A stretch of 36,439 bases of DNA from an uncultured Candidatus Saccharibacteria bacterium (lineage in GTDB: Bacteria > Patescibacteriota > Minisyncoccia > Phycocordibacterales > GWA1-40-21). Of this stretch, positions 3,913-5,976 are shown in pieces; within the stretch, counting starts at the first letter, position 1, and every line of letters begins with the position of its first letter. Position numbers and translations under genes: made by a program. Below the pieces are notes generated by a model. The model was given only the letters and a program-made list of their open reading frames with translations, did not search any database and had not been told where the DNA came from. The stretch is taken from NCBI GenBank assembly GCA_964455475.1, contig CAYVWL010000002.1, positions 1 through 36,439 on the forward strand, in the 5' to 3' direction.

Positions 3913-5976
3913 ATGCCCGAAAACAAGAAAGAAAAAGAAGCAAAATATGGGGCGGATCAGATCACCGTCCTTGAGGGGCTAGAGCCGGTGCGAAGGCGCC
4001 CGGGTATGTATATTGGTACCACAGGGCCAGATGGTTTGCATCATTTGATTACGGAAATTTTTGACAACTCACGGGATGAGGCCATGGGTGGCTTTGCCAA
4101 TGATATTGAAGTGGTGCTTCTCCCTGGGAACCGCGTGCGGATTACGGACAACGGCCGTGGTATCCCCGTGGACATTCACAAGCAGACAAAAGTCTCGGCG
4201 CTCGAAACCATTATGACTGTCCTTCATGCCGGTGGTAAATTTGGTGGTGAGGGGACAGGCTATAAAGTGTCTGGTGGTCTCCACGGTGTGGGCGCCTCCG
4301 TGGTAAACGCTCTCTCTATTTATATGAAGGTGACGGTACATAAGGATGGCGGAGTATATATGCAGGAATATTCAAAGGGTAAGAGGAAAGCTGCGGTGAA
4401 GAAAATCGGCACCACCAAATTTCACGGCACGATAGTGGTCTTTGAACCGGATGCGGAGATTTTCAAGGAGGGTGTGGTCTTTGACTGGACCAAAGTTTTT
4501 TCTCATATGCGTCAGCAGGCTTATCTGGTAAAAGGTTTGCGTATTTCGGTGATTGATGCTCGTGAGTCCAAGGACAAGTTTGATGAATCAGACGTCTTTT
4601 ATTTCCGTGATTTGGCGGTGGAGGCGCCGTCCCAGACTTTCTATTTTGAAGGTGGTCTCTACTCACTCATCAAATTTTACAATCAATTCCAAAAACCGAT
4701 CCACAAGAATATTTTTTATGTGGAAAAGAAAGTGGAAGGTGTGGAGTCCGTGGAAGTGGCTCTGCAATATGTGGATGATATTTCGGCTCGTGTGGTATCA
4801 TTTGCTAACAATATTTTTACAGCTGAGGGCGGTACTCATACTACCGGTTTCAAGGCCTCCCTCACCAGAATTCTTAATTCCTACGGACGCAAGAATGGCA
4901 TTATAAAAGATAATGATGACAACTTCACCGGGGACGATGTGCTGGAAGGTTTGACCGCGGTAGTGTCCGTCAAGCTACGCGAGATTCAGTTTGAAGGTCA
5001 GACCAAAGCCAAGCTGGGTAGTATGGAAGCACGTAGTGCGGTGGAAGATGTTTTCGGCACCGCTTTTGATGCCTTTTTGGAAGAGAACCCAGAGGATGCC
5101 CGGGCGATAGTGAGTAAAGTGATCTTGGCCTTGCGCGCTAGGAAGGCCGCCAAAGCCGCCAAGGATTCTATTCTACGTAAAGGGGCACTCGAGGGTATGA
5201 CTTTGCCGGGCAAGCTGGCTGATTGTCAGAGTAATGACGCTTCCGAATCCGAACTGTTTATTGTAGAGGGAGATTCCGCCGGTGGTACCGCCAAGACCGG
5301 TCGGGACAGACGTACCCAAGCCATCCTCGCCCTCCGCGGAAAAATATTAAACATTGAGCGTGCTAGGCTGGACCGCATGCTTGGTTCTGAGCAGATTAAA
5401 AATATTGTCCTTGCACTCGGCACCGCTATTGGTGATACTTTTAATATTGAAAAATTACGTTATCACAAGATTGTGATTGCTACCGATGCCGATGTGGACG
5501 GGGCGCATATTCGTACCTTGCTTTTGACTTTGTTTTACAGATATTTTAGACCGCTTTTGGATGGAGGATTTATTTATATTGCCCAGCCACCTTTGTATAA
5601 AATAAAAAAGGGTAAAGAGATTACTTATATTTATTCTGAAGAGGAAAAGACCAAGAAATTTGGTAAAGAAACGCCGATGGATATTATTGAAGCCGAGCCA
5701 GACAGCACCACCTCGGCCTCCGAAGGCCACTCCTCCTTAGAAAAGGAGGAGAAAGGGAACAAGCTCCACGTTCAGCGCTACAAGGGTCTGGGAGAAATGA
5801 ATGCGGAGGAGCTGTGGGAGACCACCATGGATCCCGCCCGCCGGGTATTAAAACAAGTAAATATCAATGACGCTCAGGAGGCGGACAAAGTCTTTGATAT
5901 GCTCATGGGTACAGATGTGCCCGCCCGCAAATCCTTCATCCAAAGCAATGCCAAACTGGCGAACCTGGATATCTAA
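3913..5976 (+). CDS. gyrB: DNA gyrase subunit B
   Basis: GHKL ATPase motifs ([50 protein letters not shown]). Toprim ([27 protein letters not shown]). C-terminal [21 protein letters not shown]. Confidence 0.97.
5706..5757 (+). repeat. Hairpin-forming repeat element lying in frame inside gyrB
   Basis: Perfect 9-bp hairpin CTCCTCCTT-AGAA-AAGGAGGAG at 5730-5751. The 27-mer GCCACTCCTCCTTAGAAAAGGAGGAGA (5726-5752) is identical to 28820-28846. The shared CCACCTC lies at 5708-5714. Encodes ...[11 protein letters not shown]... in a linker of GyrB. Confidence 0.8.

Follow-up and report, generated by a model that had tools for sequence, protein, structure and literature searches.

A palindromic repeat shared by gyrB and a cysteine desulfurase gene is part of a dispersed family with in-frame copies in Candidate Phyla Radiation genomes

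Why should gyrB and a gene for a NifS-like cysteine desulfurase share a string of 27 nucleotides? The question arises in contig CAYVWL010000002.1 of the NCBI metagenome-assembled genome GCA_964455475.1, whose entire 36,439 bp make up the stretch analysed here (the window). The 27-mer GCCACTCCTCCTTAGAAAAGGAGGAGA occurs exactly, on the forward strand, at 5726-5752 and again at 28820-28846. Both copies are read in one phase, as HSSLEKEE, within long open reading frames (ORFs; 3913..5976 and 28546..29841), and the core of the string is a perfect 9-bp hairpin closed by a 4-nt loop, AGAA. These features, together with a CCACCTC motif upstream of each copy (5708-5714 and 28800-28806), had been recorded in a first-pass annotation of the window, and all of them are borne out. 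A third copy, missed at that stage, lies between genes on the reverse strand (11670-11696, 3 mismatches). Allowing up to 3 mismatches, none of 100 dinucleotide-preserving shuffles matched the 27-mer.

The evidence assembled below makes it likely that the 27-mer is the core of a modular palindromic repeat of about 50 nt, which belongs to a large, dispersed and non-autonomous family whose in-frame survivors are found in genes of the Candidate Phyla Radiation (CPR). The gyrB and NifS copies would then be two survivors of one subfamily. The family is new, while its kind is already known, namely palindromic repeats resembling the repetitive extragenic palindromes (REPs), the Rickettsia palindromic elements (RPEs) and the miniature inverted-repeat transposable elements (MITEs), with copies in frame within genes.

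Anatomy of the repeat unit and its copies in the window

Alignment of the sequences flanking the core matches revealed a unit of about 50 nt composed of a box, a short variable hairpin (hp1) and the 9-bp hairpin (hp2), such that the first-pass description of a 27-nt hairpin element was right about the hairpin and wrong about the size. The box is non-palindromic, with the consensus [A/C]ACC[A/G]CC[T/C]C (ACCACCTC in the window), and contains the CCACCTC motif, which is a conserved part of the unit. For hp2 the consensus is C[T/C]CC[T/G]CCTT-loop-AAGG[A/C]GG[A/G]G, represented in the window by CTCCTCCTT-AGAA-AAGGAGGAG, whereas hp1 varies from unit to unit (for example GGCCT-CCGA-AGGCC, GTCAT-CAGA-ATGAC or CCCCGC-TTCG-GCGGGG). 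One or two linker bases separate the two hairpins, and hp2 is followed by AAAG (often), AGAC or AGTC. By our own count, CGTC directly follows the box in about one third of the units; the box itself ends in CCTC or CCCC, and no GTAG was seen. The unit is also found as inverted doublets of 125-180 nt, which are the size of RPEs, contrary to the earlier statement that the element is far shorter than these.

A covariance model built from the unit (R1) was used to score the window and all further loci. In the R1 alignment, 98% of the hp2 cells are paired, with bases swapped in concert between UA (44) and CG (22) in one pair and among UA (53), GC (4) and CG (2) in another, and the outer pairs of hp1 interchange among CG, GC, UA and AU. 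Moreover, the true pairing register outscores every slid register. As these counts come from related sequences that were aligned to the model, they support a maintained hairpin rather than prove it. No match to the unit reached the gathering score in Rfam 15, where the window returned only tRNAs and 18 loci returned nothing, and an E-value scan of Rfam gave only microRNA matches at chance level.

The window contains four full units identified with R1 and one unit that lacks hp1:

3913..5976, + strand: gyrB, 687 aa (Pfam HATPase_c, DNA_gyraseB, Toprim, DNA_gyraseB_C)
5706..5755, + strand: full unit in gyrB (R1 70.6 bits, E 1e-15), with box 5707-5714, hp1 GGCCT-CCGA-AGGCC 5715-5728, hp2 5730-5751 and tail AAAG 5752-5755
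11589..11718: tail-to-tail inverted doublet, REPIN- or MITE-like, formed by the next two units, with termini CACAACCGCCCC ... GGGGAGGTGGTG
11592..11643, + strand: diverged full unit, matched over the full model length (R1 27.8 bits, E 2.6e-5), AACCGCCCC-GTCCATCGGAATGTCC-A-CCCCGCCTT-AACC-AAGGCGGGG-AAAG
11667..11718, - strand: full intergenic unit (R1 72.3 bits)
28546..29841, + strand: cysteine desulfurase / class-V aminotransferase, 431 aa (Pfam Aminotran_5)
28798..28849, + strand: full unit in the NifS-like gene (R1 72.5 bits), with box 28799-28806, hp1 region GTCTCGCAGACTCGCC 28807-28822 and hp2 28824-28845
29426..29468, - strand: unit without hp1, antisense in the NifS gene, found by repeat-family comparison with weak R1 matches; its reverse complement is AACCGCCCC-TAG-CCCCTCCTTATCTAATGAGGGG, and the segment is translated as LLFPSLDKEGLGAVE

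From one stop codon to the other, the intergenic doublet occupies all of the space that separates the convergent ORFs 6003..11585 and 11719..12858. Its reverse-strand unit begins directly after the TAA stop of the latter ORF, an S1-domain gene on the reverse strand, and is 86% identical to the NifS copy over 56 nt, while in the diverged unit two base pairs of hp2 (CCCCGCCTT/AAGGCGGGG) have changed on both arms in a compensatory manner, as compared with the seed units. In a DNA fold of the doublet, the termini pair with each other and each unit forms its hp2 hairpin (z = -3.96). Elsewhere in the window, the stretch at 13355-13600 between ORFs 13088..13354 and 13602..14240 is densely filled with hairpins that have one C-rich and one G-rich arm (such as CCCCTCCTCATTTGAGGAGGGG, CCTCCCCTTGTCAGGGGAGG...CCCCCTGACAAGGGGG and TCCCTTCTTAGTTAAGAAGGGA); these resemble hp2 and contain no full unit.

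The family across genomes and its in-frame copies

The first-pass annotation had stated that a 27-mer occurring nowhere else in the genome, with read mapping exposing the two loci as an assembly artefact, would speak against a repeat. Instead, further genomes and independent assemblies carry the unit. The exact 22-mer core of the unit was found at 28 loci in species-representative genomes, where we estimate a chance expectation of about 0.1, and a pattern of box plus hairpin gave at least 120 matches in metagenomes. With R1 we counted 61 non-overlapping units in 282 kb (the window plus loci); another 655 kb yielded 178 matches. L034 (JGI) and L035 (Logan), which were assembled independently from the same species, each contain the gyrB unit. 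The tail-to-tail doublet layout of the window recurs in eight loci (L010, L031, L025, L022, L007, L006, L014 and L020). Bacteroidota and Acidobacteriota carry the same unit architecture arranged head-to-head, apparently only between genes. Among the metagenome matches there are low-GC, CPR-like contigs, as well as a very uniform type from the human gut, a head-to-head doublet of about 180 nt in which GGTGGTAGG and CCTACCACC face each other over an AT-rich spacer and form MITE-like termini; from its sequence composition we take this type to be Bacteroidales-like. Viral contigs gave no match to the box-plus-hairpin pattern, and there is thus no sign of a phage vector.

How often do the units lie within genes? 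In CPR loci that carry a taxonomic label, 22 of the 49 units are inside long ORFs (14 sense, 8 antisense), compared with 0/12 in the non-CPR loci from Bacteroidota and Acidobacteriota. A cruder test on the larger low-GC set put roughly 20 out of 102 units within long ORFs; 31 of the 102 were within 40 nt past a stop codon (22 sense, 9 antisense). An ORF test of this kind relies on an ORF that spans the unit, and its scope is limited to copies that leave the gene unsplit. It is unreliable for GC-rich gut contigs in metagenomes, as there several of the "coding" calls fall 31-52 codons into stop-to-stop ORFs, possibly before the real start, and for this reason we rely on the labelled set. Eight of the hosts were confirmed with Pfam: ArgRS, RecG, FtsK, MurC, the alanine racemase Alr, RsmE, a FAD-linked oxidase and a ComEA-like protein.

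If the intragenic copies are translated, as their frames lead us to infer, the choice of frame should be biased. The units of the exact-core subfamily offer two open frames per strand, and in 12/12 independent cases the frame used was the hydrophilic one, reading ..SSLEKEE.. or ..SSFSKEE..; the other open frame (LLLRKGG / PPFLRR) was used in none of the 12. Such a bias is predicted by selection on the translated peptide, and argues against removal of the units by splicing or their avoidance by ribosomal bypass.

Comparison of orthologs showed that the same positions are filled repeatedly and differently. In MurC orthologs with 78% identity, the same pair of sites is occupied by units, which at one of the two are oppositely oriented, while RsmE orthologs hold different family members at one site, where the pairing of hp2 is kept at a protein identity of only 53%. 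In RecG, two genomes have a doublet at a common site, inverted in one relative to the other (L020 3179-3317 and L129 6974-7091), and other orthologs of RecG, like those of the host gene in L122, have no doublet. In one further RsmE locus (L089, unit at 2307-2356), resemblance to RsmE starts at the unit, preceded by sequence that looks unrelated, a configuration suggestive of a rearrangement breakpoint.

In GyrB, the unit is located in the linker between PPLYK and QRYKGLGEM, which the earlier annotation had described as short and variable. We compared 120 close relatives, of which those with a source name are from Patescibacteria (Paceibacterota/Parcubacteria). The linker is indeed hypervariable, acidic at first and then lysine-rich, yet it is not short: it spans 47-76 aa in the 119/120 relatives whose linker had definable ends, and the 57 aa of the window are typical. 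In this ortholog alignment the element is shared only with strain P0002, which is 99% identical, and is missing from relatives at 91-92% identity; the window GyrB itself has no exact protein match on record. Compared with the nearest relative that has no element, the linker is just 4 aa (12 nt) longer, over a stretch where DNA alignment was not possible, which gives the element the look of a replacement inside a variable linker. The earlier view of the segment as an insertion is supported as regards its absence from most orthologs, and abandoned as regards a clean addition to a short linker. At the nucleotide level, the gyrB unit is identical in strain L034 (47/47 nt), where gyrB overall is about 92% identical.

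GyrB orthologs also differ by additional small in-frame palindromic inserts. The gyrB of L034 has 30 extra nt at the N-terminus (..CGCCAGAGGCTCTGGCG.., KPAVARGSGEAR; 843-900, compared with 3913-3940 of the window, which has none of them), and that of L036 has a 24-nt insert near alignment column 680 (LNVVGQAR). Several more distant linkers have PAPGAGSGK-like motifs in common. The ORF downstream of gyrB (6003-11585, 1860 aa) contains 210-nt tandem repeats (9472-10340) and strong in-frame hairpins at 6409-6471 and 8086-8142, and gave only a weak Glyco_hydro_130-like match. Since gyrB and the S1-domain gene are adjacent in L036, this ORF plus the doublet looks like an inserted island.

The NifS gene of the window has four in-frame hairpin segments, which are the full unit (site 1), the unit without hp1 at 29426-29468, and two hairpins of other families at 29110-29155 (CACAAAAGCTTGGCCTTTGG-TATGT-CCAAAAGCCAAGCCTTTGTG, translated HKSLAFGMSKSQAFV) and 29694-29716 (CGGACAAGGA-CAG-TCCTTGTCCG, translated SGQGQSLS). 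Of 120 orthologs aligned, 60 were readable at site 1, and 7 of these were filled; most were empty, reading ..VNNL-EKKG-VK-ISD... In a poorly resolved neighbour-joining tree the filled alleles lie scattered. The other three sites are likewise empty in many orthologs, and other orthologs hold different hairpin-type peptides there; at 29110-29155 and 29694-29716 the variants include LYKGLAFEGQAFV or SSERLGTPLSGEDF. One ortholog, L029, carries a full unit at the site corresponding to 29426-29468 (5022-5073, 27.8 bits), and its copy of the site 1 unit is identical to that of the window at 50/50 nt, whereas the gene outside it is 69% identical (P about 9e-9).

An AlphaFold model of NifS (mean predicted local distance difference test score, pLDDT, of 89.6) places the segments at predicted loop or coil sites that appear permissive. 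Three of the four segments lie in 10-residue blocks with a mean pLDDT of 58-77 and the fourth lies in a coil-scored run (residues 382-388), and all four are bordered by confident helices and strands in the model; the peptide of the site 1 unit is in a coil of low pLDDT. Most orthologs lack the units and in-frame copies are present in many housekeeping genes, and the analogy to RPEs that had been drawn from the sequence at first sight is apt.

Spread of the units and competing explanations

How would such copies arise and persist? In the model that we favour, a copying mechanism, presumably an enzyme acting in trans, would place members of this non-autonomous, REP/REPIN- or MITE-like family at new sites, and copies would also pass between related lineages by homologous recombination of short gene segments. 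With so little intergenic DNA available in CPR genomes, many of the copies end up inside genes. A copy inside a gene could persist only if the net change in length is a multiple of three, if a hydrophilic frame without stops is available, and if it falls in a tolerant loop or linker, and translation of the survivors would give short peptides, such as HSSLEKEE, on the protein surface. Recombination is visible in one close pair of alleles, the filled L032 and the empty L033, which are about 96% identical over the gene and its flanks except in a single patch (73 nt and 43 nt, respectively) that holds the unit plus diverged neighbouring codons and shows no direct repeats. Such a pattern is characteristic of homologous recombination with another allele over a short patch, and not of clean insertion or excision. 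Copies also decay, as seen in the units without hp1 (window 29426-29468 and L028) and in the half site of L030, which keeps just the loop and 3' arm and so represents a decayed copy.

Several observations weigh against a family of transposing, selfish repeats. We found neither a target-site duplication nor a clean filled/empty junction, with L032/L033 being the one close pair and all other pairs too diverged for this comparison. No cognate transposase was detected in about 1 Mb of loci searched, nor was a related autonomous insertion sequence with matching ends found beside units in the loci examined, and the rve/IS481-like transposase gene of the window (23458..24351) shows no link to the unit. 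The proposal of a repeat or mobile origin is therefore upheld for a dispersed repeat, seen in dozens of other genomes, and not for transposition. A link to REP-associated tyrosine transposases (RAYTs) was considered and rejected, as the RAYT-like Y1 genes that we encountered are flanked by their own, different palindromes. In L034, such a gene (2937-3694, 225 aa) lies directly after gyrB (Pfam Y1_Tnp 26.4 bits; NCBIfam REP_Tyr_transpos 27.7 bits, under its cut-off) and is flanked by the palindrome CCGTCAACGTGSCACGTTGACGG, with a third copy in frame inside the transposase gene; this palindrome was not found in the window. A homologous gene of 37% identity in L004, from Saccharibacteria (1962-2775), has a doublet TAGACTAAGGTTAAACCTTAGTC...ACTAAGGTTTAACCTTAGTCTA on both sides, which is the classical REPtron layout with yet another palindrome.

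Also against simple transposition and decay, orthologous copies are much better conserved than their hosts (50/50 nt against 69%) and the paralogous copies of the window are 86% alike, which a purely selfish, decaying insertion does not predict. Different members and orientations have repeatedly hit the same sites (MurC site B, RsmE and RecG), requiring either very few permissive sites or targeting, and the 22-mer core is near-identical across distant phyla. Nucleotide conservation and site reuse are hence not accounted for by a simple selfish-repeat model. The conservation of orthologous copies could result from selection on the nucleotide sequence or hairpin, from a segment that passed between lineages very recently, or from insertions that recurred at one specific site.

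Selection on the hairpin is central to an alternative that we regard as possible though unlikely, in which the unit is a structured nucleic-acid signal selected by the host (a stabiliser of mRNA 3'-ends, a terminator-like element, an RNase site, a translational pause or a mimic of Shine-Dalgarno and anti-Shine-Dalgarno sequences) and its spread is secondary. Such a role fits the conservation of orthologous copies beyond that of the gene, the retention of hp2 pairing through compensatory changes, including those at the RsmE site, the doublet abutting two convergent stop codons in the window, and the 31/102 low-GC units that closely follow stop codons. The box and 5' arm moreover resemble the anti-Shine-Dalgarno sequence of 16S rRNA, CACCTCCTT, and AAGGAGG forms the 3' arm, likenesses that are noted here as such and no more. 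However, no run of T follows the hairpin, and an intrinsic terminator can be rejected for a GC-rich hairpin of this kind; units lie in both orientations inside genes; most orthologs have none; decayed copies exist; and no Rfam family matches. Furthermore, the Bacteroidota, which also carry the unit, largely do without Shine-Dalgarno pairing. We similarly give a low probability to the idea that the units are a structured element conserved across phyla, which repeatedly enters the same loops of essential CPR proteins by homing or by a drive of recombination or transformation, and is kept at the nucleotide level through selection on the hairpin, which could for instance serve as a signal in mRNA or DNA with anti-Shine-Dalgarno and Shine-Dalgarno-like arms. 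If true, the insertion of palindromes would be a major ongoing shaper of CPR proteomes, with one NifS gene already carrying four segments.

Could the units instead spread like DNA-uptake signals, taken up and recombined preferentially by competent CPR cells in short-patch sweeps in place of transposition? The L032/L033 patch, which includes diverged flanking codons, the scatter of filled NifS alleles in the gene tree and the identical element in diverged genes would all agree with this, and cultivated Saccharibacteria are reported to be naturally transformable (PMC10633639). Nevertheless, known uptake sequences are 9-12 nt long and come from point mutation, not from insertions of 30-140 nt, and the density of the units, roughly counted outside the seeded genes, is about one per tens of kb rather than about one per kb. 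Uptake also leaves the arrival of units in unrelated genes unexplained, and the unit is present in Bacteroidota and Acidobacteriota as well, so that we consider this route improbable.

An explanation that we find very hard to credit is that the inserts are never translated, being cut from the RNA or bypassed by the ribosome like intervening sequences or the mitochondrial 'byp' hop elements. GC-rich hairpins within the coding DNA of AT-richer genomes might suggest this, and CPR bacteria are known for insertions in their rRNA genes. However, every intragenic copy from the spanning-ORF test is free of stops and keeps the frame of its host, and the use of one of two open frames in all 12 exact-core cases led us to reject bypass or splicing as unlikely. 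Finally, we regard chance, local formation of hairpins de novo by template switching, or an assembly chimera as practically ruled out. In L031, where the NifS site is empty, the sequence TTAGAAAGACGAGGAG is already similar to the loop and 3' arm, which makes a templated origin of the 5' arm conceivable at that single site, but the similarity between copies spans 50-56 nt and includes the non-palindromic box and hp1. Chance and assembly artefact were rejected on the basis of the shuffles (0/100), the hundreds of unrelated contigs from many studies, and the gyrB copy in two independent assemblies.

The window has several other features. Beyond the IS481-like transposase gene, a LAGLIDADG-domain ORF (25219-25938) lies beside a cluster of four tRNAs (24672-25215), near which a repeat of about 60 nt occurs at 24536-24596 and 24779-24839. 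The contig start (25-159) has two very strong hairpins, comprising a perfect 20-bp palindrome, CATGTGTAAATAAGGAAGCT-TT-AGCTTCCTTATTTACACATG, at 105-146 and a GC-rich stem at 34-80. A 62-nt repeat with 76% identity is found just inside the start of ORF 30699..31670 (30733-30794) and at 31769-31830, where it ends at the ATG of an ORF at 31828 that is clpB-like by synteny with relatives; the repeat may be a shared promoter or leader.

Known palindromic repeats and implications for CPR genomes

In-frame intragenic copies have been documented for REPs, RPEs and some MITEs (PMC3733652, PMC3184786). The likeness to RPEs (Ogata et al. 2000, as cited in PMC3184786 and PMC3733652) is extensive: both are palindromic, dispersed repeats that occur between genes and in frame within housekeeping genes, both encode peptides in tolerant parts of proteins, both reside in small genomes of host-dependent bacteria, and the CPR doublets, at 125-180 nt, are RPE-sized. 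Like RPEs, the CPR units lie in frame in genes (GyrB, NifS, ArgRS, RecG, FtsK, MurC, Alr and RsmE), most of whose orthologs lack them. The core sequence is a different one and so are the phyla (Patescibacteria, Bacteroidota and Acidobacteriota, as opposed to Rickettsia). The CPR unit also differs in being only about 50 nt long, with a conserved non-palindromic box and two hairpins, and in having a 22-mer core that is near-identical across phyla.

With REPs and REPINs the units share a repeated short palindrome in the form of a GC-rich stem-loop (the 9-bp stem and 4-nt loop of hp2 are as in the CGTC families; PMC3733652), the occurrence of single units and inverted dimers, and a frequent position just past stop codons between convergent genes. 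However, REPs include GTAG- and CGTC-tagged superfamilies (PMC3733652), whereas the CPR unit has no GTAG tag and an inconstant CGTC, possesses an extra conserved box and a second hairpin, and flanks neither of the two RAYT-like genes found in CPR loci. Its intragenic share is much higher (22/49 in the labelled set, about 20/102 in the low-GC set), such that it is not predominantly extragenic as REPs are, and its dimers are tail-to-tail, while head-to-head prevails in most REP families.

Bacterial MITEs (Nezha, Correia and RUP/BOX/SPRITE; PMC3184786) are likewise non-autonomous; the terminal inverted repeats of the doublets and their fold into a long stem-loop are those of a MITE, orthologous sites occur filled and empty, and fusions of MITEs with ORFs are known. 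The CPR units depart from MITEs in that no target-site duplication was seen around them (in the one close pair), the loci examined contained no parent insertion sequence whose ends match the unit, and single half-units are common and apparently stable entities. DNA uptake sequences (the DUS of Neisseria and the USS of Pasteurellaceae) also occur in genes in preferred frames and as inverted pairs after genes, and spread by recombination in competent bacteria; unlike these, the CPR units are structured insertions of 30-140 nt and are far less dense. In the literature searched, we found no description of such elements in CPR bacteria.

The nucleotide conservation of the units and the reuse of their sites raise the question of whether the hairpins are functional or driven by recombination. 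On a practical level, the units offer strain-level markers, and they are a warning to annotators and phylogeneticists that markers such as gyrB can contain non-homologous segments. The genomes of CPR bacteria (Patescibacteria) are tiny and gene-dense and are thought to be streamlined, yet their essential genes, including those for gyrase, a tRNA synthetase, FtsK, MurC, RecG and the desulfurase of Fe-S cluster assembly, have been repeatedly colonised in frame by palindromic repeats. The phenomenon appears to be pervasive in CPR housekeeping genes, represents a second and much broader instance of that known from the RPEs of Rickettsia, and explains many lineage-specific loops of CPR proteins as in-frame units.

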